Assembly: GCA_964016885.1 (NCBI GenBank)
Contig: OZ024753.1
Span: 44,516,001-44,580,000 of the forward strand
Origin: Eledone cirrhosa
Taxonomy: Eukaryota
Direction: 5' to 3'
Length of the DNA stretch: 64,000 nucleotides
In this document: piece after piece, positions 7,803 to 58,603 of the stretch
How positions within the stretch are numbered: the stretch's first letter is position 1
How the letters are laid out: each line of letters opens with the position of its first letter
The notes under the pieces: generated by a model
The model's database searches: none
What the model was told of the DNA's origin: nothing
The model's input: the letters and a program-made list of their open reading frames with translations, nothing else
Position numbers and translations under genes: made by a program

Positions 7803-7924
7803 AGGAAAAGAATCAGGACCCCGATGGCTGAGCTCCAGCCTTTTCGACAGCTAGATCCTATTACCCACTCTACTACCCTCGAGTACTCTGGTGTGTTATG
7901 GTATCTTACCACATCTTCTTTGTT
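7803..7924 (+). mobile_element. PLE-type remnant family C (inverted arm plus tail, second arm deleted)
   Basis: GGAAAAGAATCAGGACCCCGATGGCTGAGCTC...GACAGCTAGAT joined directly to the family tail CCTATTACCCACTCTACTACCC...CTTTGTT. (TA)n on both sides. Confidence 0.75.
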
Positions 7925-8084
7925 ATATATATATATATTTTGAGTGTATGTTGGTTGTTTACCGACACCTCAGTATGCAGATTGGAGCACTCGACGAAGT
8001 ACGCAGGTTGGTTTGTTTACTCCGGAGTAATGTAAAATAAGTAAGTCAAACATGTAAAATTTGGCTTCGTTTATTATAAATTCT

Positions 8085-8137
8085 CTGCTATATATATTTT
8101 GGTGACAGCTATTATTGGCTGTGACCTCTTCAAGCAG
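8085..8137 (-). ncRNA. Degenerate type I hammerhead motif (family F)
   Basis: CTGC-TTGAAGA-GGTCACAGC-CAATAATA-GCTGTCACC-AAAA-TATATA-TA-GCAG. All three helices are present, but the core has C3>U and G12>A, so it is probably inactive. Confidence 0.65.
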
Positions 8138-8140
8138 TAC

Positions 8141-8209
8141 AAATTAATGTGGAAAAGACAGGTAAATTAATGTGGAAAAGACAGGTAAATTAATGTGGAA
8201 AAGACAGGT
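8141..8209. repeat. 23-bp tandem triplication
   Basis: AAATTAATGTGGAAAAGACAGGT x3. Confidence 0.9.
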
Positions 8210-8411
8210 TGTTGAAATATGTTCCACTCTGTCAATTCAACGATATGTCCAGCTCCTGGGTGTGTTGTTAGTCCTCTGAAGAACTGGAATCATATATATA
8301 TATATACATCTGTGTGTGTGTGTGTGAGACCCAGTTTCAATTGGGGTTAAACACAGTAGGTAACGTACTCAATACATTAGTAGAGTGTGAACATCATGTT
8401 TAATATAGAAG

Positions 8412-8465
8412 TGGCTTCTACAGGACTAGATCTGTTTCATTCAAAATAAATCATCAGTAAAGCCA
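8412..8465 (-). ncRNA. Type I hammerhead motif (family D, full core)
   Basis: TGGCTTT-A-CTGATGA-TTTATTTTGAAT-GAAA-CAG-ATCTAGTC-CTG-TA-GAAGCCA: 7-bp helix I offset by one extra A, weak helix II, GUA triplet. The family tail continues to about 8330. Confidence 0.65.
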
Positions 8466-8805
8466 ACTGTCCTTGTAAAATGGTTGTATTTATGTTTTCC
8501 AGAAAACATATGAGAACTAAAAGAGGAGAAAAGCTTGTCAGTTCTATACCATTATGCCCAGCTAGAATGAGAGACATAAGAAAGAGTAAAAACTATAGGA
8601 AGACACAGATAGATAAACATAAATACACCCACCACCACCACAACCAACACACACACACACATGTACACATGCCAAACATAATGCCACACACACAGACACA
8701 GATGCAAACACATGCACAGACAGGGAAGCATATGACAGAAAGACAAGATAGAGTAAACAAAATAAGTCCAGAAGAAGAGGAGGTGCAGAGGAAAACAAAT
8801 AATTA

Positions 8806-8950
8806 TTGAGAGGGTCATAGAATGTGTGATGAAAGAACTTTGAAAATTCCGTACGATAACAAACTAAATAATAATTAATAATAAAACTGAAGTTACAATC
8901 AAATAGATTGGGTATTTTTATTGGCAACATGACCATCCCTTAGTATAACA
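8806..8950 (+). mobile_element. PLE-type remnant family E with degenerate hammerhead core
   Basis: GGTCATAGAATGTGTGAT-GAAA-GAACTTTG and TTGGCAACATGACC...AGTATAACAATAT match the minus-strand copy at 11172-11490. Confidence 0.5.
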
Positions 8951-9038
8951 ATATATATATATATAAATGTATATATATATATATATAAATGTATATATAT
9001 ATATAAATGTATATATATATAAATGTATATATATATAA

Positions 9039-9110
<72 letters not shown>

Positions 9111-9582
9111 AAATATATATATATTTATATATATATATATATTTATTTATGTATATATATGTGTCCCACCCTTGCAAGCAGGGAAAGGCGGACGTAAAAT
9201 GATGATGATGTATACACACACCATCCACACAACTCCCACATCATGTTACACATATATTCGTGAAAAAGATAAAGAGATTATTAAGTGCAGAGGCGAAAAG
9301 TTTATCTCTCACATCACATCACATATCTCATTCTTTTCTGCTAGAGACCAATAATGTTGAGTTCAATAAGTGCTACTACGTTTAACTGTTATATTTATCT
9401 GAACTGTAATTGATCGGTTTATCTCGATGAAGTTGTTTTGTTTTGCTAAGAAAATTCCTATCATTTCATATAATTGTTGCAATGAAGTCTCAAACGCATG
9501 TGGAATAATCACATTATTCATTAACACATGTATGTAGATACCTTCAAGTACCAACCCGATACTACTATATCAATCGCCCCCC

Positions 9583-9624
<42 letters not shown>

Positions 9625-9756
9625 GTATGTATAAAGATCCACATAGTCCTGGATATATATATAGCCAGGGCTATACAGATCTTTATTCCAGTGACTTCAT
9701 TAACAAATTTATATATATATATATATATATATAGCGAGAGAGAGAGAGAGAATATA

Positions 9757-9866
9757 CAGGGTGGCCCAAATGTCGCAATACATAGTTTCCATATTTATTT
9801 ATTTTGAATAAATTATTTCTTATAAAACATAATCATTTTTTTTATCTATCGTGACTTTTGGGCCTC

Positions 9867-9870
<4 letters not shown>
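9757..9870. mobile_element. Tc1/mariner-type MITE
   Basis: TA-CAGGGTGGCCCAAATGTCGCAATA ... TATCGTGACTTTTGGGCCTCCCTA-TA: imperfect terminal inverted repeats of about 24 bp with a TA target site. Confidence 0.75.
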
Positions 9871-9918
<48 letters not shown>

Positions 9919-10265
9919 TCCTATGCGAGCAAGACAACCACTCTTGCCTCAAGTGGGAAAACCCCCGTCCAAACCCATGCAAGCGTGGAACACGGACGCT
10001 AAACCTGATGATGATGATGATGATGAAAAGGGTCAAAACACTTGCTTGAGTGAGGTTCCTTCTCTGAAGACCTTCTGCTGTCCAGATCTCTTGACGGTTT
10101 TTTACCACTATATATATATATATGTATAAAGGGAGAGATAGTAAGAAAAATGGACATTAAATAATGATATGTATATACATATATATTCTTTTAGTGTTAG
10201 TGTTTTAAGTCATTGGATTGTGGTCATATATATTCATGTATATATGTATATATATATATATATAT

Positions 10266-10443
10266 AGGAAAAAAGCTCAAGCCGTTTCGACGGGTATTTC
10301 TGGAGTCCAGAAATAGCCGTCGAAACGGCTTGAGCTCTGCCGTCGGGGGTCATAATCTTTCCTATTTCCCACTCTACTACCCTAAGAGTAGAGTACTCTG
10401 GTGCGTTATGGTCCATCTGGTTCCTTACCACAATTCCTTTGTT
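10266..10443 (+). mobile_element. PLE-type fold-back remnant family C
   Basis: Palindrome centred near 10305. GAAA-CGGC-TTGAGCTCT-GCCG-TC-GGGGGTC at 10322-10351, then the conserved tail. TA flanks. Confidence 0.8.
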
Positions 10444-10908
10444 ATATATATATATAAAGAGAGAGAGAGCTAGGTTTTGTTAGGTTGAGTTTGTATAAAA
10501 AATGTTAGCGTACATTTACATGGATTTTTAAAAGAGAAACCCCATATATAAAAATGTTATTATACACACCAAGTATCATCTAAATAAAAACAAAGATAAA
10601 ATAAGGAGAAGAGGTTACAGTAAAAGGATGAACTAGAAATAGATATGTGTTCATTGTTATTGTTATATGATGACATTACAAATAGTAAAATGATATATTC
10701 CTCCTTATGTCCTTATGTAGCTATAGGAGAATTGTTGGGATAAAGTGAAACTATAGACTGAGAGCTAAGTGATAGAATAACCAGATGTTAGCTCTGAGTT
10801 TGAAATGGATTCCGAAGTAACCCTTTCTATAATCTTCAATTTATTCTGTTGTTATGACATAGGTAAGGCCTTTGGTGGTGTCAGGTAAAACATTTTAGAG
10901 TTTGCATT

Positions 10909-10957
<49 letters not shown>

Positions 10958-10960
<3 letters not shown>

Positions 10961-11086
10961 GAAGGTGAGTAATAGTGTAGAACAATAAAACTATGCATAT
11001 ATCAGATAAGTAGCACTCAACTGCTGTTGTTTTCGAAATGCACATAATAAAATATATGGAACTTTTTTAACCATCTTTTAATTTCT

Positions 11087-11095
<9 letters not shown>
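10958..11095. mobile_element. Internally deleted family B remnant
   Basis: Reverse tail homologous to 32811-32880 joined to GAAATGCACATAATAAAATA...TTTTAACCATC (3' half of the family B hammerhead). Confidence 0.7.
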
Positions 11096-11171
<76 letters not shown>

Positions 11172-11174
<3 letters not shown>

Positions 11175-11490
11175 CGTGAATTTGTTTAGCAAGATTCTTT
11201 ATCTGAAAACGTGTGTTGAAACCCATATTGTTATACTTTGGTAGGGTCATGTTGCCAAAAAGAAACACACGCACCAGTTGCTTTCACTTCAATTTATTAT
11301 AATAAATTTATAAATTTAGGAATTTATAAATTTCCAGTTAGTTGGTTGGTTCCACAACCAGATGGTTGTTTATATATTGTCAAAGTTCTTTCGTCACACA
11401 TTCTGTGACCTCTTCAGTGACTGGGGATTCTTTTCTTTGTTTTTGTGCGTCTCCTTTGTTCTGTCCTACGCCATCTTGTTTTTGTGTGTG
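11172..11490 (-). mobile_element. PLE-type remnant family E with hammerhead core at 11389-11417
   Basis: Minus strand CTGAAGA-G-GTCACA-GAATG-TGTGAC-GAAA: 6-bp helix II with one extra G after A9. Helices I and III could not be reconstructed. Confidence 0.5.
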
Positions 11491-11562
11491 TCATATATAT
11501 ATATATATATATATATATAATCCATCCTGATTTATATTTATATATATATATATATATAAATA

Positions 11563-11663
11563 TAAATCAGGATGGATTCAGTTATAAATTGGTTAGACCA
11601 TTATTCACCACAGTACTCGATACTTGTGAAATAGCTTTTGAAATGGCAAGAGCTCAGTCGTCG
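11563..11663. mobile_element. Diverged, deleted family C remnant
   Basis: GACCATTATTCACCACAGTACTCGATACTT matches the reverse family C tail, followed by GAAA-TGGC-AAGAGCTCA-GTCG-TC-GG. Confidence 0.6.
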
Positions 11664-11687
11664 GTGTGTGTGTGTGTGTGTGTGAAG

Positions 11688-12135
11688 TCGCATGGCTTAG
11701 TGGTTAGAGCATTGGGCTTGCAATCGAAAGGTTGTGAGTTCAATCCTCGGATCAGGTGATGCGTTGTTTCCTTGAGCAAGTCACTTTGTTTCACATTGCT
11801 CCAGTTTACTCAACTGCAGAAATGAGATGATAGGACTGGGGTCCCTATCATTCCACTACAAAGTGGCCGTGGAGGTGCCACGGCAAAAAAAGCACCCAGC
11901 CCTCACTTTAAAGTGGACGTGTAGGCGCTACGGGGGAAAAAAAGCACCCAGCACTCACTGCACTCACTGTAAATGAGGTTGGATTTAGGAAGGGCATCCA
12001 GCTGTAGAAATCAAGCCAGAATCAGTTCCCGTATGAGCAAGACAAAGTCAGCCGACCGGACACTACCTATAACAGGGCAACCCATCTAACCCATGTTAGC
12101 GTGGAAGAACTGACATAAAACGGTGATGATGATGA
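11688..12135 (+). mobile_element. tRNA-derived SINE: A/B boxes, CORE-like domain, internal ~43-bp repeats, (GAT)n tail
   Basis: TGGCTTAGTGG (A box), GAGTTCAATCC (B box), TTCCTTGAGCAAGTCACTTT...CTCAACTG, AGGAAGGGCATCCAGCTGTAGAAA, AACCCATGTTAGCGTGGAA, GATGATGATG. Confidence 0.85.
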
Positions 12136-12145
12136 GGATATATAT

Positions 12146-12361
12146 AGAAAAAGAGTCAGGACTCCGATGGCTGAGCTCTAGCCATTCCGATAGCTAAGTC
12201 TGAACTGAGGTCTGAACTGAGTTCAAATCTAGCTGTCGAAATGGTCGAAGCTCAGCCATTCAGGGTCCTGACTCTTTTCCTATTACCCACTCTACTACCC
12301 TAAGTATCGAGTACTCTGGTGCATTATGGTCCACCTGGTTCCTTACCACACAGCCTTTGTT
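12146..12361 (+). mobile_element. PLE-type fold-back remnant family C (diverged)
   Basis: GAAAAAGAGTCAGGAC... / ...GTCCTGACTCTTTTCC inverted arms plus conserved tail, in TA context. Confidence 0.8.
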
Positions 12362-13674
12362 ATATATATATATATATATATATAAAGTAAGTTAACATTC
12401 AATACATAGGAAAACATTTGTTATTATTTACTCATAAAAGAAAGTCAGTTGGTGTCTATTCCTCTCTGGTTCTCGTTATAACTATATGGAATTTCTGTAT
12501 TTAGTGCAATAAAAAATACAAGAAAATTCCCACCTATTGTGTGAAAAAATATATATATTTTCTTCTGCTAGACACTATTGATCTTTAGGAGAGAAATATC
12601 TGCATTTCTCATGCAAAGACATATAAAGATTAATATATATATATTAATAAATTATCCATAACCGTTCGATAGATTTTTTTTTTCTCATTTTCCAAACCAT
12701 TCTTTGGTAGAAATTGAATATTTCATTACAGCAGAAATCTGTATTCATTCCCCTTTAATTTTTACCAAGGAGTCGTGAAAGCTATGTAGATTTTATTAAA
12801 TCATATATTCCCATTTTGGTTTAGTGCCTTCTTGCACAACAATGTCCACTAACCACGGAGATTTATTCCATTACTGAATATATGTTTATTCTGCTGGCTA
12901 GCATTTCTTTCATCTTTATTCTTTATTAAGCACAAGCTTGACAAACAATTATAAGGATGATATATGACAAATATATTGCTACCGACCGACCGCTACCTGC
13001 TTCACTTATTACAACAACAGCACTGAGCGTTTCTTAGTTACAGAATGCAAGCACTTGGAGAAAGTAAAGTCCATTATGTGATTTGAAAATTTATTGCCCT
13101 CGAAATAGCAAGGCTCGAACATTAAGAAGCAAGGAAATATTCTAGTGAATTCTGATAATATTCAGAATCACAATATAGTAGAGAGCTTTAGAATGACAAA
13201 CTCATATATTAATAAGATAACAGATTGCTTCATTAAACAAACTCTATACTAAATAAAACTTAATTTAAAAGCGTTTCATCACAAATATTTAGCATATTGA
13301 ACAAAAAGAACACCTGTTTGGCAATAGTTGTCAACTTAAAACTGCTGATATATACAATTGAAAGGTTTTAAATTAAATTAAATCTAAAAGGTAACTAGGT
13401 GTAAAGGTAGAGAGAAGTATGATGCCTGCATATGATGTGTTATGTCCAATAAGTTGTCAAGTTTATTCATTTAAAGCATATTTACATGCTGCCTTTCCAG
13501 ATAAGTAGAAATAGAGCATAGAATTTGATCAACAATATCCCAGAACTCATTTGCTTACAATGTTTCTCCTGGTCTTTCCATTGTTGATATCTACCAGTTT
13601 CAACTCCACGCAGATCCAGGTAAATAACATAACCAAAGTTATTCAGTTTGAAGGAAATAAACATATCTTCATTG

Positions 13675-13877
13675 TATATAAGTATAAAGGATTATGTGCT
13701 GAAGCATATATATGCTATAAAATAGCTTATAAAGTAGGACAAAGACCATTAAAACACAGATAAAGAAGTTACCATCACTATAGTGGCCAATGGTAACTTC
13801 TTTTTCCATCTGTCAATATTTTATAAGCTATTTTATAGCATCTGTGTGCTTGAGCATATCTTCCTTTATACTTATAT
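13675..13877. mobile_element. Fold-back/MITE-like element
   Basis: TATATAAGTATAAAGGA...ATGCTATAAAATAGCTTATAAA pairs with TTTATAAGCTATTTTATAGCAT...TCCTTTATACTTATATA. Inner stem AAAGAAGTTACCA/TGGTAACTTCTTT. Confidence 0.65.
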
Positions 13878-13899
13878 ATATATAAATATATATATAGAG

Positions 13900-14492
13900 A
13901 GAGAGAAAGAGTGAAGTTGGAAATAGCACAGAAAATATATTTAAGGGTCTGTTTTTCTTTTTTGATTCGTCCAAGTGACATTATTGAAATTGATAACATT
14001 ATTGAAAAAATGAAAGAGACAATTCTTTTTTAAAAAAATGTTTATAATGTATATTTTAAAAAGAATTGTCCCTCTAATTTTTTCAATAATGTTACCTTTT
14101 CAATAATTGTTTCTACTTTAGGCACAAGGCCAGCAATTACCCAGTGCATTACTGGTACTTTATTTTATCGACCCCGTAAGGATGAAAGGCAAAGTCAACC
14201 TCGGCGGTATTTGAACTCTGATCGTAAAGGGACGTAACTATGCTGGAAAGCATGGCGTCCGACCCTCTACCGATACTGCCAATCCACCGCCCTTTTCAAT
14301 AATTGTTTCTACTTTTGGCACAAGGCCAGCAATTACCCAGTGCATTACTGGTACTTTATTCTATCGACCCCGGAAGGATGAAAGGCAAAGTTAACCTCCC
14401 TTTTCAATAATGTCACTAGGACGAATCAAAAAAGAAAAACAGACCCTTAAATATATTTTCAGTGCTATTTCCAACTTCACCTTTTCTCTATA
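13900..14492. mobile_element. Fold-back element (about 85-bp outer arms, inner palindrome 13993-14097) interrupted by SINE insertions
   Basis: 13900-13990 is the reverse complement of 14402-14492. Confidence 0.75.
14102..14398 (-). mobile_element. Full-length tRNA SINE (Meta-like central domain, ATT tail) plus tandem 5'-truncated copy
   Basis: Reverse complement of GGTGGATTGGCAGTATCGG...GAGTTCAAAT...GACTTTGCCTTTCATCCTTACGGGGTCGATAAAATAAAGTACCAG...GTAGAAACAATTATT. CTTTTCAATAAT occurs at 14096, 14292 and 14400. Confidence 0.88.
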
Positions 14493-14532
14493 TCCACTGT
14501 TTTATATAGAACCTTACTATATATATATATAT

Positions 14533-14729
14533 AAAAGGAAAAAGTATGACCCTGACGGAAGAGCTCAAGCCGTTTCGACGGCTATTTCTGGACTCAGAAA
14601 TAGCCGTCGAAACGGCTTGAGCTCTGCCGTCGGGGTCATACTTTTTCCTTTTTCCCACTCTACTACCCTAAGTATTGAGTACTCTGGTGCGTTATGGCCC
14701 TTCTGGTTCCTTACCACAATTCCTTTGTT
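14533..14729 (+). mobile_element. PLE-type fold-back remnant family C (58-bp arms plus ~77-nt tail)
   Basis: Arms 14533-14590 and 14595-14652, spacer GACT. Half-hammerhead GAAA(14609)-CGGC-TTGAGCTCT-GCCG-TC-GGGGTC. Confidence 0.85.
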
Positions 14730-15202
14730 ATATATATATATATATATATATATGTATTCTCAGTGATTAAAAGTCTGAGAATTCGGCTTACAAACTTTGT
14801 AATTCTTTTTTTGCAAATCTAATTTTAAAGAAAATATGAAACAGTTTATTCTATTTGAATAATTAACTACTGATAGGTATTATATTCTCACAAATATCCA
14901 TCTTTTATTGCCTCTTGGTATCTCTGCTTGATCTGAGATTAAAGAACAACAACAACAACACCTAGATGTAACTGATTAGATAATCAGTCTAGATATGATG
15001 TGTTTCTCCCAGTTGTATCACTTCATCTACATCTGTTAAATGATACAGAATTACGTCAATACTTTACAATTCCTTCTTTTGAATTCAGTTACAAGGATTT
15101 ATATTAACAGTAAATCCTATAAACCTAATAATATTCTCCTGTAAATAGATTCTTACGTTGAAGGTAAGTTGATGTAAATATGTTGATATGGGTGTCGGTG
15201 CA

Positions 15203-15240
<38 letters not shown>

Positions 15241-15768
15241 TGTTATGTGTGTGTGTGTGTGTATTCACTGAGATGTGTAAAAGGATAAAAATATAAAGAT
15301 GGAAGGAAAGGTGCAAATTGTCACATCAGACTCAAGAAAACGTTTCCATGGGTTTTTATTAGTCATAACTCCTGGCAAAAGACAATTGACAAGAATAAGA
15401 AATAAAAGAAATATATATATGTGTGTGTATATCTGTGTGTGTGAATTTAGTATATCTAAAGATATACATTAAATATACGAAATTCACATGCATGTATGTA
15501 TACAGCTATGCTGAAGCTATATATATATATATAGATCTATCATAGATTGTAAACCTATCAACGTCTACCATCTCTCTAGCACACACACATAGTTGGACTA
15601 ATCCATATCTAGACTTCATTATCATATTTTACCCTCCCCTCTGTTTTACCTCAACAACTATGAAAAACCCCCCTATCTCTCTAGTCTTTGTCACATCCTC
15701 CTTCTTCTCTACTTCAACTTCACATGAATTCCTATAAAAACCTGAACATTCTGGTGCGGTAAACATAA

Positions 15769-15883: not shown

Positions 15884-15992
15884 ACCGAATAAATCTCTTT
15901 TACTGCATCTTTCTGTTCTTTTTAATTCTTTATATATATATATATATATATAATGTATTAATAAATGGAAACTATATTTATAAAACCATAAT

Positions 15993-16057
15993 TATTTTAT
16001 TATATATATTTCAAGGGCAACCAAGCCAATCTTGGTGCACTTTCATCAGATAAAATA
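15993..16057 (-). ncRNA. Type I hammerhead ribozyme motif (family A)
   Basis: TATTTTAT-CTGATGA-AAGTGCACCAAG-ATTGG-CTTGGTTGCCCTT-GAAA-TATATA-TA-ATAAAATA. The outer inverted repeat TTTATAAAAC/GTTTTATAAA extends helix I. Confidence 0.85.
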
Positions 16058-16350
16058 CAAAATTTGTTTTATAAATAGTGACATAACTATGGAAAACAAC
16101 CTTGACGGTTGAAAATTCGCTGGATAGTCATATTGAATTTTAACTCCAGCATCTGTTGAGTGCTCTATATCAGTTATAAACTTTTAAGTTTGTTGGAATC
16201 CCAACAAATTAAATATAACTTCTACATATATATATATATATATTAGTGTCCGAAACGTTAAGACCCTCTTCCTGCTATATCAAGCGTTAACCTAATATAT
16301 CCCTTCAATTTACTGCACCGATTGTGTTGTTATTTCTGTTTACCTTATAC

Positions 16351-16383
<33 letters not shown>

Positions 16384-16914: not shown

Positions 16915-16916
<2 letters not shown>

Positions 16917-17093
16917 CAAAGACAGTGTGGTAAGAAACCAGGTGGACCATAATGCACCAGAATACTTGATACTTAGGGTAGTAGAGTAGGAAATAGGAAA
17001 AGAGTCAGGACCCCGGCGGCTGAGATCTGGCCGTTTCGGATCTAGCTGTCGAAACGGCCAGAGCTCAACTGTCGGGGTCCTGACTCTTTTCCT
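16915..17093 (-). mobile_element. PLE-type fold-back remnant family C
   Basis: Reverse tail, then TAGGAAAAGAGTCAGGACCCC... / ...GGGGTCCTGACTCTTTTCCTA. TA flanks. Confidence 0.82.
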
Positions 17094-17142
17094 ATATATA
17101 TATATATAACTAGGTAGAAAAAGACATATTTATATATATGAG

Positions 17143-17485
17143 GCACATGGCTTAGTGGTTAGAGCATTGGCCTTGCAATCGAAAGGTTGTGAGTTCAATT
17201 CTCAGACCGGGTGATGTGTTGTTTCCTTGAGCAAGACACTTTATTTCACATTGCTCCAGTTTACTCAGCTGTAGAAATGAGATGATAGGGACTGGGTTCC
17301 CTATCATTCCACTGCAAAGTGGTCGTGGAGGTGCCACGGCAAAAAAGCACCCAGCACTCACTGTAAATGAGGTTGGTGTTAGGAAGGGCATCCAGCTGTA
17401 GAAATCAAGCCAGAATCAGTTCCCGTCCCACCCTTGCAAGCAGGGAAAAGCAGACGTAAAATGAAATGATGATGATGATGATGAT
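17143..17485 (+). mobile_element. tRNA/CORE-like SINE with (GAT)n tail
   Basis: Same family as 11688-12135, with a shorter 3' part. Confidence 0.85.
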
Positions 17486-17497
17486 ATATATACATAT

Positions 17498-17528
<31 letters not shown>

Positions 17529-17573
17529 ACTAGGTAGAAAAAGACATATTTATATATATATATATATACATAT

Positions 17574-17617
<44 letters not shown>

Positions 17618-17634
17618 CTAGGTAGAAATAGACA

Positions 17635-17675
<41 letters not shown>

Positions 17676-17716
17676 ATGATATTAATAAATGGAAACTATA
17701 TTTATAAAACCATATT

Positions 17717-17779
17717 TATTTTATTATATATATATTTCAAGGGTACCAAAACTTTGGTATGCCCTCATCAGATAAAATA
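17717..17779 (-). ncRNA. Type I hammerhead ribozyme motif (family A, second copy)
   Basis: TATTTTAT-CTGATGA-GGGCATACCAA-AGTT-TTGGTACCCTT-GAAA-TATATATA-TA-ATAAAATA. Confidence 0.8.
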
Positions 17780-17843
17780 CAAAATTTGTTTTATAAATGG
17801 TGACTTACCCAAGAAACCAGACCTTATCGGTTCAGGTTCAGTT

Positions 17844-17898
<55 letters not shown>

Positions 17899-24689: not shown

Positions 24690-24748
24690 CTCCGAATTAA
24701 GAGATCAAGTTAGTTCAGTCTGAACTAACTTGATCTCTTAATTCGGAG
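24690..24748. repeat. Perfect palindrome with 29-bp arms and 1-nt spacer
   Basis: CTCCGAATTAAGAGATCAAGTTAGTTCAG-T-CTGAACTAACTTGATCTCTTAATTCGGAG. Confidence 0.95.
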
Positions 24749-28444: not shown

Positions 28445-29013
28445 TTTCGGATTTACCATCAATTATTAATTAATATTAGTATAATATTAAAGACATAACA
28501 GATAGTTTCCCTCAGCCTAGCTTTTTATTAATATTAGTATTTTAAATCATTAAAGGAACTAATTTAGTTTTTGATTACTGAATAACCTTAACAAGTTATA
28601 CTAAATCAAAACTTTGTTATAAGGACCACCTCCCTGCTCTCCACCATCGGCACAAAGTTGGCTACCAACAGCTGTGAACCTTGTAAGCTGGAATGGCTCT
28701 TCCAGCACATCTCTTTGACCATCCTCTGTGGAAAAACCTTCTTTATTCTGTCTGCCAAGTGGCCGTGTATTGGCCCCCAGTTGCTCATATTGTTGAGAGA
28801 TGGGAAGTGTGGGAGAGATGGAGTCAGTGACAGTGGGAGTTTGATTCTTTTGTGTTCAGACCTGGTGTATATGTATATATTTCACAGACATTCTCCTTTC
28901 TCTTTTATGGAATTGTTCTAGCTTAGTAATTAAAAAGCTAGGCTGAGGGAAACTATCTGTTATGTCTTTAATATTATACTAATATTAATTAATAATTGAT
29001 GGTAAATCCGAAA
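28445..29013. repeat. Perfect 83-bp inverted repeat enclosing ~400 bp
   Basis: 28445-28527 is the exact reverse complement of 28931-29013. Confidence 0.92.
28606..28760 (+). mobile_element. C-terminal fragment of CRE-like non-LTR retrotransposon (restriction-like endonuclease region)
   Basis: Translates to VIRTTSLLSTIGTKLATNSCEPCKLEWLFQHISLTILCGKTFFILSA, resembling LLxxIGxRLxxATGEPRExxWLFQRISLAIxRGNAxSILSA. Confidence 0.62.
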
Positions 29014-32140: not shown

Positions 32141-32330
32141 ATAGATATATATATATCAGTGAATTGGCAGTATCGGTAGAGGGTTGGGCGCAATTGCTTT
32201 CTAGCATACTTATGTCCCTTTAAGGTCCGAGTTCAAATCCCGGCGAGGCTAACTTTACCTTTCATCCTTACGGGGTCGATAAAATAAAGTACCAGTACAA
32301 GAGTAGAAACAATATATATATATTATTATT

Positions 32331-32464
32331 ATAGAAATGATTTCTACAAGACTAGCACTGTTTCTTTCATCAGGAAAGTGTTTTCTATTTCAAAATAAAT
32401 ATACCTACATTTTGAGTATCTTCTGTAACTGTGGTCACCTCACAGTGTACATCAGGAATCCACC

Positions 32465-32758: not shown

Positions 32759-32811
<53 letters not shown>

Positions 32812-32937
32812 GTAGGAGGTGAGTTTTATTGTAGTACAATAAAGCAATGCAGATATTGGATAAGTAGCACTCTACAGTTTGTAGGACTGGAGTATAAATA
32901 ATATATAAGATCAAAAGATGGTTAAAAGAGTTCCATG

Positions 32938-33008
32938 TATTTTATTATGTGCATTTCAAAAACAAATATCATCATGCGATGACATTTGCGTTTTCGTCAG
33001 ATAAAATA
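32938..33008 (-). ncRNA. Type I hammerhead motif (family B, left arm)
   Basis: Reverse complement of 33071-33141, except helix III reads TGCACA. Confidence 0.85.
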
Positions 33009-33070
33009 GGGAGACATGATATGAAGGTTAAAAAACACTTGTGTTTTTTAACCTTCATATCATGTCTCCC

Positions 33071-33141
33071 TATTTTATCTGACGAAAACGCAAATGTCAT
33101 CGCATGATGATATTTGTTTTTGAAATGCGCATAATAAAATA
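33071..33141 (+). ncRNA. Type I hammerhead motif (family B, right arm)
   Basis: TATTTTAT-CTGACGA-AAACGCAAATGTCAT-CGCATG-ATGATATTTGTTTTT-GAAA-TGCGCA-TA-ATAAAATA. Confidence 0.9.
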
Positions 33142-33169
33142 CATGGAACTCTTTTAACCATCTTTTGAT

Positions 33170-33215
<46 letters not shown>

Positions 33216-38984: not shown

Positions 38985-39245
38985 TAGTCTGTCTCAAGCC
39001 CAGAATCTCATCAGGCTGGTACTTATCCCCGTGTTAAATGACTGAGAGTACAAGACTTCCTCTTGGACAGGACGCCAGTCCATTGCAGGGTTTAACCCCC
39101 AGTTACTGCTGCTGGTACTCATTTTTAGCTGAGTGTACAGGAGCAATGGGAAATGAAGTGTTTTGCTCAAGAACACAACACACAATCCAGTTCAGGAATT
39201 GAACCCATGATATTATGATCGTAAGTCCAACACACTTACCACTAA
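38985..39245 (-). mobile_element. tRNA/CORE-like SINE with a different 3' half
   Basis: A/B boxes and CORE-like block, then CCCTGCAATGGACTGGCGTCCTGTCCA. Second copy at 55080-55330. Confidence 0.75.
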
Positions 39246-39514
39246 GTTATAAGTACTGCTCCTCTTGGTTGTTTTACTAACTCGTGTTAAAAATAAATAT
39301 TGTTTAGTTTCACCTGTGATTATTAACAGGTATTTTCTTCTTAGATATATACATACTATCAGTGATGACATGTGGCTTGAGGGTTAGGGTGTTTAGTGCA
39401 CAGTCATGAGGGTGTGAATTCGATTTCCAGTGATACATTGTGTCTTTGAGCAAAACACATTGCCTCAGTTCACTCAGCTTGCAAAAATGTTACATAAGTA
39501 ATTGAAAGGTCAGC

Positions 39515-49536: not shown

Positions 49537-51780
49537 AGTTGATTACCTTCTGAATCTCAATTCCTATCATCTAACATTTCTATCTCCCTTTAGGCTTCAT
49601 ATTTCATCCTTTGTTAAAAGTCATTAAATTCTACTTGTACAGCTTGATGCTTAATTAAGAATTTGTTATTAACAAATAAATTAATTAATGATAACAGTTA
49701 AATGACATGCATTAAATGCTATTAACAACCAACATATTGTTAATATTAACAGTTGATTACAGTTAACAGTTTTTTTAGTAAATTAAAATAATAATAATAA
49801 TAATAATGATAATAATAATAATAATAGTAATAATTAATAAAAAGAAAGAAAATATAGTTCATTAGTAAATTTAAAAAAAAAAAATTAAATACAGAAAAAA
49901 ATATCAGCAATCTTTGATTACAGCTTTTTTTTTTAGTAAATTAAAAATAATAATAATTTTAAAAAAGAAAGAAAAATAGTTTATTAGTAAATTTTTTTTT
50001 AAATAATAAAAAAAATTTTTTTTAGTAATTAAAAAAATAGTAATTGAAAACAGAAAGGAGCATTACAGTTTTTTTTAGTAAACTAATAATAATAATAATA
50101 TTAAAAAATAGAAAGAAAATAATAAACAATCTGAGAAACAAAAGAGACTTAGATTAACATTTACTTAAAAGTCAAAATGTTTATTAAAGATTTATTATGA
50201 AAACTTATTTAGTAATTCAAATAATAGAAAGAACTGCTATAATTATACACATCATCATACTAATATACATGTACTATTGTTTCTGTCTTGGCTACTATCC
50301 ATCTTTATTGCCAAGCAAATTGTCCAAATTTATATTTTGGCACAATATTGCCAAATTCCGAGATTTCAAGTAAATTTTATCTGAAATAAGTGGGGATTAA
50401 TTGGTATATATTGTCAGTTTGCCTGAGGAACAAACAATTCAAACTAAAAAGTAATTAAAATTTCTGTTTCACGGAGCTTTTTTAGAAAATCATTTTTTTC
50501 TCTATATTTTTTTTGGTTAAATTTATTGTTATCCTTTTATTTTCTTCTCCCATTAATGTGTTTTTAAAACATTTGCTATAATATACAGATTTTTGTTTTC
50601 CAAATATAAATATAAACTTACGTAGGAAATATATCTAATTTGTCTGTCCATCAATCCATCTGTCTCTATGTCTCCCCTTTCTCTTTCTTTCATCTGTTTG
50701 TCTCTCTCTCTCCCTCTCCATCTCTCTCTTTCAGTATATATATAGATATATGTGTGTCTCTCGCTCTTCTATATATATATATGTGAGTGAGTTTGTGTGT
50801 TTCTCTCTCTTTCTGTATATATATATATATGTGTCTCTTTCACTCTCTCATTACAGAACCATGCACGTTTATCAAAAGATATAAAGTTAATTACTATATA
50901 CAGTAATTAACAGTTTATTTATAAAGTTTGCATTTGCTGCAGGCATTTTATAATGTCTTCGAACAGGATACTTAAATTTGAGAGACTAATTACATATAGG
51001 TGTTGTATAGATACAGCATATCCTTGCCTGTTGATCAGATGACTAAAAGATTTGCCTTTAAGAAGGAAATTTGACTGTAAAATATTACCTAAAAAAACTC
51101 ATGTTGAGTGTGAACTCTGTGATGGGGTCAACAAAGCTAACCCTTAAAGGGTTGATTGTTTTGCTGTTATTGTCATTATATACACATTTAACCCTTACTA
51201 GTGAAGGCATGTGGCTGAGTGGTTAGAGAATTGGATTCACAATCGTGAAGTTGGGAGTTTGATTCCCGGACCAGACGATGCGTTATGTCCTTGAGCAAGA
51301 CACTTTATTTCCCGCGGCTCCTTCTACCTGGAGTTGCGACCAATAAATAGTATTAGCAATTAGAAAGGCCAATGGAAATATTGTTTCCTTGGCCCGATTT
51401 GACAAAAGTCAATCGTTCCTTAACCCTTACTGTACCATATTTCTAAAGAAAAATACTTCCTATGATTTTCAATTCATTTTTCTAATAATTATAATCAAAT
51501 ATTTTGGAGGAATTTAGCAATATATGATAACTTTCTCATAATTAAGCTGGTGTTTAACACAGATATTTACTTAACACAAATACTTACTTGAAATTATAAT
51601 GGAGGGTTTTAAATATAAACATTTTAACCCTTCCATGACAATATTTCGAATGAAAGACACTGTTTATGATTTTCAATTAATTATAGAAATAGTAATTTGA
51701 AAGGATTTAGTAATATAACTTTCTCAATATTAAGCTTTCTCTATTAATTATAAAAATAGTAATTTGGAGGGGTTTAGTAA

Positions 51781-51862
51781 TATTGGGTTATAACATACAT
51801 TCCCGCCGTTGTTATAAAACTTCTTAATAAAAAAACGGCAGGAATTTATGTTACAACCCAAT
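51781..51862. mobile_element. Small palindromic MITE-like insertion
   Basis: TATTGGGTTATAACATACATTCCCGCCGTT / AACGGCAGGAATTTATGTTACAACCCAATA. Confidence 0.7.
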
Positions 51863-52536
51863 AATATAACCAGCTTTTTCATTATTAAGCTGATGTTTGT
51901 AACAAATTATGAAAGTTTTTAGGTAAATATAACACTCTAAAATAAATGATTTTATATTATAGAAACATAGGTTGTTTCTTGTGGTTTGATACCAAAAGTG
52001 TTAAGTTACCAACAATTACACAATATATCAAAGTGGAGATTTTGTCACAAGTCTGTCTTGTTCTCCGCCCCAAGATGTCAGTGTCCCTATTGTGAACTCA
52101 ATCAATACATTGAAATGTCACAGGAAGCATTTGTTATTATTCCATTCCACTTTGAGAATTACTGTCTTTTGATATAAAGTTTTCTGTTCTAGTATGTTCC
52201 ACTGTATTACAGCTCAACCTTACTGTCAACAACAGCTATAGGGCTCTATAAATGGGATTATTCGTTTTAGTATGAACAGTAATATAGTTTACTTCACACA
52301 GATACTATATTTATAAAAACTTAGTTTTTGTGAATCCTTACTTTAACCCTCCTCTTACCAAACTGCTTGAATCTTCTTCAGGTAGGAGATATAAAACTGT
52401 TAGCTTTGTAGTGTTTAAATATATTTATCTAGAACCTTACTTAATAATTTTAGCTAAGAACATTTGCTTTTGATAGGACCCTCTAGAAAATGTGTCTGAG
52501 GACTGAGCCCCCAGGGATAAGTGGACAGTTTAACTT

Positions 52537-52920
52537 CATCATCATCGTTTAATGTCCATTTTACATGCTAGTATGGTTTATATGGGTTGTCCTATTAGAG
52601 GCAAGTTAGGTCAGGTGACCATGTCTTGCTCATATAGGAGTGTTTCTGGCAAGATTTCTATGGCTGGATGCCCTTCCTAACATCAACCACATTGACAGTG
52701 TTGGCTGGGTGCTTTTTGTCGTGACACCTACATGACTACTTTACAGTGTTGACTGGGTGCTTTTTGTCATGACACCTACATGACCACTTTACAGTGTTGG
52801 CTGGGTGCTTTTTGTCATGACACCTACATCACCACTTTACAGTGTTGGCTGGGTGATTTTTATTGTGACACCTACACAACCACTTTAGAGTGTGGGCTGG
52901 GTGCTTTTTGTGACACCAAC
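52537..52920 (-). mobile_element. (GAT)n-tailed SINE 3' part with ~5 internal repeats
   Basis: Reverse match to 20085-20672. Confidence 0.8.
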
Positions 52921-55079
52921 CTAACTAAAGTCATAGTGAGCGCTCTAGTATTAGAGTTTATAATCTTTCAGTGAGTAAACTCAAGGAAACAGGTTCAATT
53001 TCCATTTGCCTCTATTTTATTAATTCTTCTAATTTTATTAATTCTCAGGAAATGTCAATCCTTGATGGATATCACTTAGCATAAAAGGTTAAACAGTTCA
53101 TTTAATTTATCATATTAGTATAAAAGGTATAAATAAATATTTATTAATGTTTAGTATGTAATTAATCATCATTGAAAACCCATTAAAAATAGCCAACCTA
53201 TTTATATCCATCAATAATGTTTAAGAATTTAGAAGACATATTTCTGGCCATTTTAACTCAGCCTTAATTCATCAGGATTTATAGTGTCAACTAATAATTT
53301 TATACACTTGAAATATGTCAAAGTTCAACTTGAGGAATGATATACATGACATTATTCAATAATACTTGACAGTAATCTGTTAATATTATCAAATCAACTC
53401 TCTTCTTTTCAGCATGTTTATGTAGTTATGTAGTTATGCTCTGAATAAGAGTCAATGGTTGTATGGTTTGATAATGAAAGGGATTTGAACTATAAGCTCG
53501 TATCTATGTAAGTAGTTATTGTTGTGATATGAAGTATCTTATGAAGTCTCATACACAATTGTAAGATATTCACCTCCATTTGAAATTTTATAAAGCAATT
53601 TTAATAATATGCTAATTGTGATAAGACTGATGCAATTCCTAATGGCTTTGCAGAAAATGTTTAGAAATAAATTGTTTATTCAAATTTTTATAGTATCTTT
53701 AATAGTGGACAGATTCTTGTTGAAATTTGCAGTATTAGACTAAAGACAATAATATTTAATATAATGTTACCAATGATGTTAAAGATAATGTAGTATATGT
53801 GCATATACATTTCTAATATTTCTACAACAGTTTTGTTAATTCAACTGCTTATAGTATCTGTACCAGTGGACTGGTCCTGGTAGAAATTTTCAGTTGTAGA
53901 CTAAAGAATATGAATTTTAAAGTGATGCAGTTATTTCTGTTTTGTCCTTTTCAAGAACGTCTTGCCAATGCAGTTTCATGTAATGCAAGAGGCTAGGATT
54001 TAATACTTTTACAGAAAGCAAGTACATCACAACATCACCTAATGTCATGTCTTCTCTTTGTAAACTTGTAACCTTGTGTATAAACATGCAACACGGCTGC
54101 CAAATTAATGTTTGAGACATAAATATGTTAACTGTGTCTAAGAATGTATAGAAATACAACAATATTTTTTTTTAAAGCAAGGGGAGTACATGTGGAACAT
54201 ATTAGTTCCAAAAATTTCTTTATTGTTACCAGAAATGGACTTAGTGAAGTGAAACCTGTAAAGTGTTATCTTAACTCTTAACTGAATGGTGTTGTAGCTT
54301 GGAAACTAAACAGTTTTCCATAGATTTTTTTATCTTTCTATGTAACATTATGTTCCTACTTCGGTAATTTCTTAGTTATATTTTATTTTCCTGGTGCTTA
54401 TTTGATCGATATGTTTATAACTTGAGGTCAATATTCTTTCGTAAGGTTTCTACTCTAAGACTTCTCCCTTTGACTAACCTTTACCATTCCTTTTATATTT
54501 TTGATTTTGTATTTTTTTCATCTGACTGCAAATATAACATTTTTTTGTTTTGTTTATTATTATTTTTATCAGCTAAAAATAAATTATCTAAGATTATCTT
54601 TCAATTAGTGAAATAACTTGTTGCTCTTTATTGAACAAGAACAGCAGAATTTCATAGAAAGTGAACTCCTACAGGTGCTCAAATTAGCTTCTGAAACATA
54701 TATTAATAACAACAAAGAAAAGTATTTTTTATCTTTTCTTACAATTTTCTTTTGTTTAAACTTTTAGTTTTTGGTTCCAACAGAACATTTTTACATACAA
54801 TAACTTAACTAGTGCTTCAAATTCTGATATCTGTAAGTTGTATTTACAAAAGTATTTTACTTTTAAATAAATGGTGGTGTATATACTGATTATACTTATG
54901 TAGAAACCAAATTATGGGGACTATTTTTAACAACTTGTACATAAGTACAAATTATTGAGGAGCTAAAATTTACGCTACAATCTAAATTATTCTATCAATA
55001 AGTAGAAACCTAAATGAACTTTAAATGAATAAAAATAAAACAATGATTTACAGTAGTGATGCCAATATATCTGGGAATC

Positions 55080-55330
55080 GGGGATGAAGCTTATCCTGGT
55101 TTCCATAGCATGAAGTGACTGAGACTTTAAGACTCACCCTGGACAGGATGCTAGTCCATCGCAGAGTTAAACCCCCAGCTATTGCTGGTACTCCTTATCA
55201 GCTGAGTATACTGGAGCAACATGAAATAAATTGCTTTTCTCAAGAATGCCTCAACACACAACGCAGTCCAGAAATAAAACTCACAGCATTATGATCATAA
55301 GTCCAACACCCTTACCACTAGGCCACGCAC
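55080..55330 (-). mobile_element. tRNA/CORE-like SINE, same type as 38985
   Basis: CCTGGACAGGATGCTAGTCCATCGCAG...AGTCCAACACCCTTACCACTAGGCCAC. Confidence 0.72.
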
Positions 55331-57005
55331 CTTAACAGAAATATGATCACAAAAGATTTAATCACATGATAATGTTGTCTTTCAAGCATGAAACTACAAC
55401 TGGTAATACCAAACGTTAGTGAAGCCTGTGCTTTAAGAGCGAATGACAGTGTTAAATCGAATGAACAACTACAATATCACTGAGAAGAAAGTATTAGCAT
55501 TAGATCTTAGCTTTGAAAGACATCAAGATGGAAGAATGCCATAGAAATGGTATAATTAATGGAATATATGATACATCCATCATTTTCATCTGACACAAGT
55601 CAAAAGAAGAAAGTACTGCTTCATGAAGGGATATTCAACTCAATAAACTATTTTCCTGTTTAAAATAGATTAAAGTAGCTGATATCAATCTCTTCCTTTT
55701 TAGAAGGAAAATTTCTTCTGTAAACCTAAAGTTAAAATAAAATAAAATAATATTTAAAATGATAACTTCAGAATTACAGTACTGTGTTTGTTGTTGTTAT
55801 TGAGCAAACCTATGATTAAAGGTGTTCCAGTGAGATCATCCTCTCATTTTAGATGTAACTAAAACTAAATTATCAAATATATTCTTTCCTTATTTAGGTA
55901 GAGTAGGATAAGATCTGATTCTAAAGAAATTTGACTGCTATCTCGGACCACATTAGGGCTTGGGTATGCAACAAATACGGGCTTTATCCCTTTTGTTACC
56001 ATATTTCTAATGAAATACATTCTATTTCAATGCATTAATGAAACACATTGAGGGATGTTAAACTTATTAATTATTTCTTTACTGAGATAGTAATTTAACA
56101 AATGGTTATATTACTATCTTTGTAATGAAATAATGAAATAATTAATAATTTTAGTAAAACCCTGAAAATGTCGAATTAATTCATTGAAATAGAAGATATT
56201 TCATTAGAAATATGGTGATAAAAGGTGGAAATAATATTACTAAAAAAGGTGAAGAACAAATAATCAATATATCAGACTATTTTAACCAGAATAAACATAT
56301 ATAAATATTCAAACAAAAACCACAAAACATCTGACTAATGTAGGATATATTGATGAAATGTTGCTACTATTCATACCACTGCACACTCCTTTATTAGAAT
56401 CAAAATGAAGAGAATAGGATACCATTTCCTCTTTTCAAGATACACAAATTGACAATAAGATTTACTGGAATCAATAAGTTAATCTAGTCAGCTGAAAATA
56501 TAAAAAGAAAAAAAAACATCAGTCTTTGTTATAATAAAAATATATAAAAAGTTCCATTGTTTAAATGCATTGATGGTGCCAATTCTTCCTTATACAGCTT
56601 CATTGGAACTATGGAAGGTTAGTAATGAAGAATTGTGAGTAAACCTAAAGTGTGAAAATTAGAGAAAATATCAATAAAGGCAAGTGTAGGGAAAATATAT
56701 TTAAGAAATAAGAAATAAATTGTATAGAATGTTTAAGAAATCTGATACTCTAAACACAGGATGAGCATGAAGTTTTTCCCTCATTATAAAATACCATATA
56801 TTGGATACTATTTCAGATTTTACTTTTTTATTCTTTTGATTTATAAATTTCAAGTTTAAAGATTTTTCTGAACATGTTTTACATTTTATCTTCTACAGGA
56901 AGTAGTTGTAATTTTATCTTCTACAGGAAGTAGTTGTAATTTTCTGTAACAAAATAGCATCAGCTTGTTTTGTGGTTTCAAAGACTTTATCCTCACCCTA
57001 TCTAA

Positions 57006-57225
57006 CCCTTTAGCATTTACATTACTCTATATATACTATTGTATTTTTGTGGTAAATGCTTTAACTCACATAATATCTCACATAATATTGAATCTATGGA
57101 ATTTTGATATTATTAATTTTGAGAACAATACCTTAACATTAGTATGAGTGACCGGTTATGGCCAGTCCAAACAGAAAAAGGTGAGAGAATTCTGGCCGGA
57201 TATGGCCAATTTAAATGCTAAAGGG
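57006..57225. mobile_element. piggyBac-type MITE
   Basis: CCCTTTAGCATTTA ... TAAATGCTAAAGGG with degenerate TTAA flanks (CTAA, ATAA). Confidence 0.8.
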
Positions 57226-57579
57226 ATAAGGGAGTTGCTTCTTATAACTTTATATTTACTTTATTATATTATGATACAAACATTTTAAAGCCAGTTTCCT
57301 TGTTGAAACATCACTTCTCCATTTTGCCCTATCCTTTGCACCCCCACCCCCCTTCATCCCCCCCCCCCTTCACCCACCCCTGGCTTTCATTTCCTCCTCA
57401 ATCTTCTTTAACCACGACTTTCTGGTTCTTTTCATTTCTCGATTTCCTTCCACATTTATTTCCATCACTCTTCTCACCCAATCACATTCACCCTTTCTTG
57501 ACACATGACCCAATAATCTCATTCTTTTTCTTTTCACATCAACTTCTGTTATCCATCATCGTCTGCAATTCATTGTTTG

Positions 57580-57910
57580 TCCTCATCTCCCTCCTCTCTC
57601 TTTCTCTTTCTCTCTCTCTCGCTTTCTCTCCCCCTCTCTCTACCTCTGTCCCTCCTCTCACCCTCCCCTCTCTCTCTCTCTCCCTCCTCTCTCCCTTTCC
57701 TCCTCTCTCTCCCTCCTCTCTCTCTCTCTTTCCTCCTCTCCCCCCTCTCTCTCCCTCTCTCTCCCCCCTCTCCCTCTCCCTATATATCCCCCCTCTCCTC
57801 TCCCCCTCTCCTCTCCTCTCTCCCTCCCCTCTCTCTCATCCCTCTCTCTCCTCTCTCCTTCCCTCTATCTCTTTCTCCCCCCCCCCTCTTTCTCCCTCTC
57901 TTTTTCCTCC
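57580..57910. repeat. Polypyrimidine (CT/CCT) tract
   Basis: Direct reading. Confidence 0.9.
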
Positions 57911-58190
57911 TCATACTCTGAACCATTCTCATATCTGTCCTTGTCAGTTTCTCTCATGTTCCCCTTTCAGTATCCACATCTCACTCATAAAATGTACCGG
58001 CAACATTTATCACACACTAGAGAGTTTGCCATGTATCTTGCAAGACTAAGAAGCACTCAATACTCTACATTATCAGTGTTCATTTAAGACATGTGATTAA
58101 CAAGTTAAATAGAAGAAAGAACAAATACAAAAAAAAAGGATGAGTGGGTGAAAGGAATGGGAGAAACAGAAGGATTGGAGTGCCAGAGGT

Positions 58191-58312
58191 TGATTTCTCC
58201 CGAATGAAACAGTTCTAGTCCTGTAGAAACCTTTCTATAATAAATATGTATACTCTGCTTTGTATTGAGTACCTTGCTTACTGTGGTTACCCCCGATTGA
58301 ACCTGGGATAAA

Positions 58313-58315
<3 letters not shown>
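58191..58315 (+). mobile_element. Family D remnant, 5'-truncated inside the hammerhead core
   Basis: TGA-TTTC-TCCC-GAAT-GAAA-CAG-TTCTAGTC-CTG-TA-GAAACC, then family tail (TGTATTGAGTACCTT) into (TA)n. Confidence 0.72.
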
Positions 58316-58395
<80 letters not shown>

Positions 58396-58397
<2 letters not shown>

Positions 58398-58598
58398 CAA
58401 AGGAAATGTGGTAAGGGACCAGGTGGACCATAACGCACCAAAGTACTCAATACTTAGGGTAGTAGAGTGGGTAATAGGAACGAGTAGGACCCCGACGGCT
58501 GAGCTCAAGCCGTTTCGACGACTAATTCTGGACGGAATTAGCCGTCCAGAATTAGCCGTCAAAACGGCTTGAGCTCAGCCGTCGGGGTCCTACTCGTT

Positions 58599-58603
<5 letters not shown>
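58396..58603 (-). mobile_element. PLE-type fold-back remnant family C (62-bp arms plus ~78-nt tail)
   Basis: Arms 58474-58535 and 58542-58603; tail 58396-58473; long (TA)n on both sides. Confidence 0.85.

Follow-up and report, generated by a model that had tools for sequence, protein, structure and literature searches.

Short (TA)n-inserted palindromes with a half-hammerhead in Eledone cirrhosa: a candidate case of twin-primed Penelope-like insertion

Penelope-like insertions and family C

Insertions of endonuclease-bearing Penelope-like elements have been described as carrying an inverted truncated copy and a one-sided tail and as being targeted to (TA)n (PMC8557442). (TA)n targets are listed in the same paper for all but one Hydra-clade family and for the octopus Naiads, and paired hammerheads on opposite strands have been described in Penelope-like elements (PMC4209133). 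How the head-to-head inverted ends and the tails are made is stated to be an open question (PMC8557442); self-priming on an antisense template has been proposed for the inverted ends (PMC3846280). Here we describe family C, seven short insertions with an inverted arm and a one-sided tail in 64,000 nt of Eledone cirrhosa DNA (assembly GCA_964016885.1, contig OZ024753.1, positions 44,516,001 to 44,580,000 of the forward strand). This whole stretch, to which all family C coordinates refer, is called the window. It is AT-rich animal DNA, rich in microsatellites and short repeats, and no credible gene was found among the frames scanned in it.

Family C shares with the published Penelope-like insertions the head-to-head inverted copy, the one-sided tail, the (TA)n targets and a putative hammerhead near the 3' end (PMC8557442, PMC3846280). 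It differs from them in the length of the whole insertion (120-215 bp), in its tail (80 nt versus 30-40 bp), in a narrow, family-wide inner stop, in that only the 3' half of the hammerhead was seen and in having no open reading frame (ORF) partner among the window frames scanned. The architecture is already known, and family C works like known Penelope-like insertions, with neither an ORF partner among those frames nor a ribozyme core in any copy. With moderate confidence, we read its copies as truncated Penelope-like 3'-end insertions that were primed from both target strands at two fixed sites in the RNA. A retro-element origin of this kind had been proposed in an earlier, sequence-only reading of the window, and it is supported by the inverted arm in 7/7 copies, the one-sided tail and the TA targets.

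Both target strands are cut and extended by the purified Penelope-like protein of Poseidon of Anolis (PAc); it favours AT-rich DNA, and it initiates at two positions within the RNA, the spacing of which is the tail (PMC11167929). Two fixed starts bounding the tail, the use of both strands and an AT-rich target are thus common to PAc and to our reading of family C. The starts are situated roughly 85 nt or further beyond the cleavage site in PAc and about 20 and 100 nt beyond it in family C, and the accessible parts of the PAc paper do not explain inverted copies by twin priming (PMC11167929). No paper applying twin priming to Penelope-like elements was found in a search outside which most of the subscription literature lay.

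Naiad_Obim and Naiad_Ovul have the (TA)n preference in common with family C, and a "half core" is noted for Naiad_Ovul (PMC8557442). Identity with an octopus Naiad was rejected: the printed Naiad 3' ends are unlike family C, and five exact motifs of 10-12 nt had no match in the accessible parts of the supplement, in which FASTA line breaks can hide exact motifs and the Hydra-1_Obim 3' end was judged from its hammerhead row alone. Non-LTR (non-long-terminal-repeat) retrozymes are, like family C, short non-coding hammerhead-bearing Penelope-like derivatives (bioRxiv 10.64898/2026.07.22.740005). This candidate was also rejected, since the retrozymes are described in the accessible parts of that source as tandem units with whole ribozymes and family C consists of dispersed single copies without a core.

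Ends, arms and half-hammerhead of family C

Written with the tail to the right, a copy reads (TA)n, inverted arm, centre, tail-side arm, tail and (TA)n. All seven copies reported earlier, named here by position, were located in their places, and a profile search of the window gave no eighth (next match E=3.4). Five are two-armed and two one-armed, as had been described: the inverted arm is present in every copy, and the tail-side arm is missing from 7803 and 11563. TA runs, which make up 5% of the window bases, flank both ends of 6/7 copies; the exception, 11563, ends in (GT)n and a separate TA-centred palindrome. This perfect 60-nt palindrome (11519-11578), centred on a TA run, adjoins the tail end of the copy and is possibly a target-site inversion. 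The tail, estimated earlier at about 80 nt, measured 80 nt in five copies; that of 7803 has 69 nt. The copies form two subfamilies, one of 10266, 14533 and 58396 and the other of 12146, 16915 and 7803.

Evidence from beyond the window was obtained by one alignment of public reads and contigs onto copy 14533. Aligned contigs numbered 17862 of 16.3 million in set X1, possibly the sample from which the window itself comes, and 41 of 8.3 million in set X4, from a second organism. Sets X6-X11, with shares under 0.2, did not enter the analysis. Aligned raw reads from restriction-site-associated DNA (RAD) numbered 21215 of 12.5 million in X12 and 21757 of 12.8 million in X13, which carry the same species label; RAD reads are biased to restriction sites, and the junction counts given below are among the best-supported junctions. 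Family C is very abundant, at 0.17% of public reads. Exact scans for its motifs gave no match in metagenome contigs, viral contigs or prokaryote genomes.

The short arm had been said to halt at a constant place, and a fixed end with (TA)n behind 14649 was found in the reads. Loose (TA)n follows this position, the short-arm end, in 3248/21215 X12 reads, 3079/21757 X13 reads and 205 contigs, and the tail end lies behind 14725 in 6575 X12 and 7412 X13 reads. The short-arm and tail ends are fixed genome-wide. The TA microhomology suggested for the short-arm end is supported as well, TTCC-TA standing against (TA)n.

Clustering of the inversion centres was confirmed and could be assigned to one arm. 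The inverted arm ends, by eye, 16, 18, 18, 17, 12, 12 and 12 nt upstream of GAAA in the seven copies, that is, within 12-18 nt in 7/7 (P about 4e-5 under a uniform 45-nt range, if the copies are independent). The tail-side arm, also by eye, starts 18, 14, 18, 17 and 1 nt upstream of GAAA in five copies and about 43 and 66 nt downstream of it in two. The narrow stop belongs to the inverted arm, and the inner end of the tail-side arm is variable. Compared with its partner, the inverted arm is longer in 4/7 copies (7803, 11563, 16915 and, by 4 nt, 14533), equal in two and shorter in one (by 2 nt). It also exceeds its partner, by eye, in three copies of the TA-inserted families D and E described below (D 517, D 32330 and E 10958). 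Arm-to-tail joints in the public data depart overall from 14584-14596. In the reads, 6/11 listed skips land at 14644-14662, around the short-arm end; seven lettered joints in contigs leave the arm at 14592-14596, and 5/7 of them land at 14643-14658. These skips and joints are drawn from the best 15 of 70 and the best 12 of 41, respectively.

Arm distances were taken from pairwise alignments. Each arm had been claimed to match its own partner better than other copies, which is clear for 58396 (2/58) and 16915 (4/44) and holds closely for the left arm of 14533 (2/53); copy 10266 is tied with 14533, and 12146 (13/61) is nearer to 7803. Two of the three arm-specific examples offered are marks of a subfamily: copy 10266 has GTCATA too, and copy 12146 shares GTCCTGACTC. 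Between copies, left arms differ from left arms, right from right and left from right to a similar degree (0.03-0.14 in subfamily 1). Repeated new formation of the inversion, the idea behind the claim, is supported: the centre differs in every copy, and left arms do not cluster with left arms. At least five different small centre variants occur, each in 12-45 contigs. Short re-copies occur at the centre of 12146, of 58396 and of one contig joint (14594 back to 14573), as would be expected from a polymerase realigning at the end of its template. A rare T at 14650, present in 1-3% of reads, is carried by both arms of 14533.

The 3' half-hammerhead reported for all copies is present, with GAAA-CGGC-loop-GCCG-UC and the GUC site intact only in 10266, 14533 and 58396. 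A GAAA-stem-loop-GUC motif with a stem of at least 5 bp appeared in 1.1% of 5000 shuffles of one arm-plus-tail, and 83% of 66 helix III cells were paired. The absence of CUGANGA from every copy was confirmed, none of the 11 CTGANGA..GAAA matches in the window lying in family C. A type II hammerhead, with CUGANGA downstream of helix I, was sought by eye and not found. The best fold of copy 14533 pairs ACGGC with the upstream AGCCGT and leaves GAAA in a loop. Loop III is palindromic (TGAGCTCA), as reported for Penelope hammerheads (PMC4209133). With type I Hydra-clade and minimal hammerheads, family C shares the (C)GAA-A-stem, the GUC triplet and this loop (PMC8557442 file S2, PMC4209133); it differs from them in being without CUGANGA and without the 5' strand of helix I, and in that helix II is not evident. 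Rfam gave no match at the gathering score in the window, and its 83 weak matches in 1-34000 included no hammerhead, a result that says little, since Rfam also overlooked the whole cores of the sister families. Support for the half-hammerhead comes mainly from its neighbourhood, because the sister TA-flanked families keep whole cores.

Proposed priming from both strands and its rivals

In the mechanism that we favour, an endonuclease would cut both strands of a (TA)n target. One target 3' end would prime complementary DNA (cDNA) at the tail end and the other at TTCC-TA, some 20 nt beyond the GUC site; each start would be matched to the target by TA, and the tail would correspond to the interval separating them. 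The head-to-head layout would follow directly from two antisense cDNAs on opposite strands. A tail-primed cDNA that halted near the second primer would leave an arm plus tail, as in 7803 and 11563, and one that ran on, by use of a second RNA or by displacement, would give a full palindrome, as would an internal cDNA that turned back. Joining of the ends would involve an overlap of 0-2 nt and in some cases be preceded by a short re-copy. Both palindrome routes, two cDNAs meeting or an internal cDNA turning back, are compatible with the rare T at 14650 that the two arms of 14533 share. The shared stop of the inverted arm may be the 5' end of the RNA, and the missing CUGANGA would be an outcome of where the template starts or stops, not of helix II pairing. 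In copy 7803 and several read joints, the arm is joined straight to the tail near the short-arm end, which is the twin-priming pattern; sister copies E 10958 and D 32330 are built alike. In LINE-1, twin priming joins an inverted segment to a non-inverted 3' segment with little overlap, and we take copy 7803 to resemble such a product. The second primer of LINE-1 acts at variable sites and the segments do not overlap, whereas in family C the second start is fixed and the arm is duplicated in most copies.

The stop, at TTAGTC or TTAGTT, presumably resembles an initiator element, which we treat as a lead only. A more specific version of the mechanism is offered tentatively: inverted ends would arise by twin priming at two programmed RNA starts, and family C would be a self-propagating mini-element whose RNA starts at an initiator inside the hammerhead, holds the substrate half only and does not cleave in cis, both cDNAs running off its 5' end and joining. 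If true, such a mini-element would explain the head-to-head orientation without an antisense template. An internal initiator-type promoter has been described in D. virilis Penelope (PMC2377424).

Several observations weigh against priming from both strands as set out here. Helix III covariation is not above shuffles (48/500 as high), its sole two-sided change is of the CpG type, ACGGC can pair equally well with an AGCCGT directly upstream, and no family C sequence showed the 5' half of the hammerhead. No reverse transcriptase or GIY-YIG partner was found in the 150/202 candidate window frames scanned against Pfam, the tail exceeds the published length, and the link between families C and D is weak (E 0.17 and 0.38; shared tail words). 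The stop is not absolute, as many records pass it (150 and 78 X1 contigs; 1867 and 1927 reads), some of which may be palindromes centred further upstream. Several skip joints possibly have unread letters between their sides and could be misaligned diverged arms, and loss of sequence at the hairpin tip after insertion is another way in which the tail-side arm could have become shorter.

The last point is central to an alternative that we regard as unlikely, namely that tail-primed cDNA snaps back at the 5' end of its template, independently of helix II, and that hairpin-tip deletions later shorten the tail-side arms. Long palindromes are known to lose their centres, and the identity of the arms in 14533 and 58396, including the rare T at 14650, would be accounted for. 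Under snap-back the inverted arm can hold only sequence that the tail-side arm also has, so a longer inverted arm is impossible without later deletion; twin priming has no such requirement, and this discriminates between the two. The losses are one-sided, the inverted arm always being kept to 12-18 nt, the joints gather near the short-arm end, and for the fixed position of that end snap-back offers only a TA match.

The mechanism proposed in the sequence-only reading, that the cDNA copies helix II of the hammerhead and snaps back there to prime the second arm, after which it rejoins the target by TA, the fold thereby removing CUGANGA, appears distinctly unlikely. The symmetry centre had been placed in helix II, a helix whose 5' strand is the inverted arm itself. 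The perfect central stem of 14-17 bp is the inversion itself and is therefore no evidence for a helix. A parent reading GACCCC-CTGANGA before GACGGCTATTTCTG had been predicted; the records that run upstream end instead in an AT-rich ...CTAATTTAGTC. One X4 contig carries this AT-rich stretch (97 loose letters, the last 30 visible), its reverse complement occurs in 78 X1 contigs (consensus agreement 0.53), and the same last upstream letters occur in 150 X1 contigs and in 1867 and 1927 reads. CTGANGA is absent from the 30 visible letters in both organisms, so a core does not lie within 44 nt of GAAA there, and a 21-nt piece of the upstream sequence had no match in the window at 3 mismatches.

Some evidence does point towards helix II. 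The centres lie between the expected place of the core and GAAA, and by eye an imperfect hairpin can be drawn between the upstream letters and AGAAATAGCC. There may be a genuine, long helix II whose core sits further upstream: helix II spacers are 26-36 nt in families E and F, and "half core" cases with 35-50 nt are noted for Naiads (PMC8557442 supplement). Junction palindromes have been put forward as sites of self-priming in Penelope (PMC3846280), and family D copy 517 joins at the border of core and helix II. Against this, the family C centres fall at the 3' edge of the loop of the by-eye hairpin, and the loop and 5' strand of that parent hairpin are clearly kept in 0/5 two-armed copies. 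The partner is shorter than the inverted arm in 4/7 copies, and in family E, where the fold lies 40 nt upstream of the core, the core is retained. Of the original proposal, TA microhomology at the short-arm end and the retro-element origin are supported, and the ribozyme-guided fold-back is not supported for family C; nor is the idea that the fold sets the structure of the insertion and removes its own core, the loss of CUGANGA being attributed in our reading to the start or stop of the template. Guidance of the join by helices has one good example, in sister family D (517-700), and none in family C. Helices can supply microhomology; there is no general helix II rule. No published description of a helix II breakpoint bias was found within the same literature search.

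Amplification of the palindrome-plus-tail as a unit, either as a SINE-like RNA (short interspersed element) or as a TA-targeting DNA element of the MITE (miniature inverted-repeat transposable element) or Helentron type, with the arms homogenised in place and the half-hammerhead a chance or old relic, seems quite improbable. The very high abundance, the fixed ends, the repeated short motif AGCCGTC, the missing core and the insignificant covariation would suit it. It is opposed by the differences between all centres, by non-inverted extensions, by an inverted repeat that is not terminal on one side and by the absence of a transposase among the 150/202 window frames scanned; the TA habit is moreover common to four sister families with whole cores, two of which have the palindrome-plus-tail build. 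A MITE was rejected as a class, one repeat lying 80 nt inside and the centres differing in every copy. Helentrons and HINEs have asymmetric subterminal repeats around a spacer, a 3' hairpin and a TT target; family C, with arms that abut without a spacer and (TA)n targets, presumably does not fit them. Very little weight is given to the stop as a splice junction, in which the AT-rich stretch ending in TTAG would be an intron end and the hammerhead 5' half would lie in an upstream exon: Penelope elements keep introns, one in D. virilis ending at helix I (PMC4209133), and the upstream letters contain CTAAT and TTAG, but the arm ends do not fall on a single AG and the spacing is short for a branch point, as judged from the 30 visible letters.

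Priming from both strands can be separated from its rivals by counting junctions, without laboratory experiments, as there are many thousands of short insertions with two fixed starts and one narrow stop. The asymmetry of the junctions is a usable handle on the open mechanistic question.

Feature coordinates, sister families and other repeats

Table 1. Positions of family C copies and of related insertions of families D and E in the window
Feature	Position	Strand	Remarks
Copy 14533, inverted (short) arm	14534..14594	-	Starts at (TA)n; inner end 18 nt upstream of GAAA
Copy 14533, tail-side arm	14595..14649	+	GAAA, helix III (ACGGC/GCCGT), GUC site 14629-14631, GGGGTC
Copy 14533, tail	14650..14729	+	80 nt unpaired, ends at (TA)n; end fixed in reads
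Copy 10266	10266..10443	+	Inverted arm with internal deletion near outer end; centre CTGG-AGT-CCAG; tail-side arm; tail
Copy 12146, subfamily 2	12146..12361	+	Inner ends of both arms 18 nt upstream of GAAA; central 12-nt tandem re-copy; arms 21% diverged
Copy 58396	58396..58601	-	Near-perfect arms (2/58); 12-nt re-copy or variant parent letters at centre; tail
Copy 16915, subfamily 2	16915..17093	-	Inverted arm to 12 nt upstream of GAAA, tail-side arm to 1 nt only
Copy 7803, subfamily 2	7803..7925	+	Inverted arm joins tail at short-arm end with 2-nt overlap TC; no tail-side arm
Copy 11563, decayed	11593..11666	-	Inverted arm 11628-11666 joins mid-tail; no tail-side arm
Family E palindrome	32810..33178	-	Tail of about 90 nt and perfect 138-nt palindrome in (TA)n
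Family E arm-plus-tail	10958..11090	-	Inverted arm joined to part of tail, no tail-side arm; build as 7803 (by eye)
Family D palindrome and tail	517..700	+	Centre at core/helix II border, 4-nt TCAT overlap; parent inferred from 8329-8460
Family D, non-inverted	8329..8460	-	Retains CTGATGA...GAAAC
Family D	32330..32462	+	Inverted arm with whole core; tail-side arm from helix I at predicted cleavage site (by eye)

Four sister TA-inserted families, D, E, F and G, keep whole hammerhead cores, and two of them have a palindrome-plus-tail build like that of family C. Whole cores with helices were found in TA-flanked families at 797, 33079, 33000, 32373, 17771, 16049 and 11417. The window holds 11 core starts against a mean of 0.43 in 30 shuffles, and four of the 11 may be due to chance. 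In family D copy 517, the inverted arm enters the core, keeping ATGA, and by eye its overlap joins it to the helix II strand; ribozyme-guided joins can be tested better in family D than in family C. A further copy of this family, a Hydra-type small hammerhead, lies at 58196-58311. The family E palindrome has a whole core on both arms (33079, plus; 33000, minus), with its centre about 40 nt upstream of the core. Family E is a TA-flanked element with a whole type I hammerhead (8-bp helix I, 36-nt helix II spacer) that Rfam misses, and a non-inverted copy lies at 754-895.

Family F is represented by 15950-16110 and 17672-17845, both on the minus strand, non-inverted and TA-flanked, with whole cores and differing helix II; it has the helix I strand of family E, TATTTTAT. 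Family G (11170-11490, minus strand, and a decayed copy at 8813-8950) is TA-flanked and has a compact hammerhead with helix II GTCAC/GTGAC and helix I GTCA/TGAC.

Copies of a tRNA-headed SINE-like family, with weak Rfam tRNA matches and ends in (TGA)n, were found at 11685-12135, 17143-17490, 24750, 39036-39246 and 51201-51322, and adjoin family C copies 11563, 12146 and 16915. Beside copy 16915, a 28-nt unit at 17097-17125 recurs twice after the SINE (17528-17555 and 17617-17645), alternating with TA runs; it is a large or repeated target duplication. Inverted repeats of 79 nt (13911-13989 and 14402-14480, 97%) surround two tandem copies of another abundant short repeat. Further perfect or imperfect palindromes without the hammerhead motif, some of them TA-flanked, lie at 13681-13872, 55989-56225, 24690-24748 and 9586-9751. 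Inverted repeats of 83 nt at 28445-28527 and 28931-29013, 100% identical and 403 nt apart, are a young MITE-like element or a local inversion.

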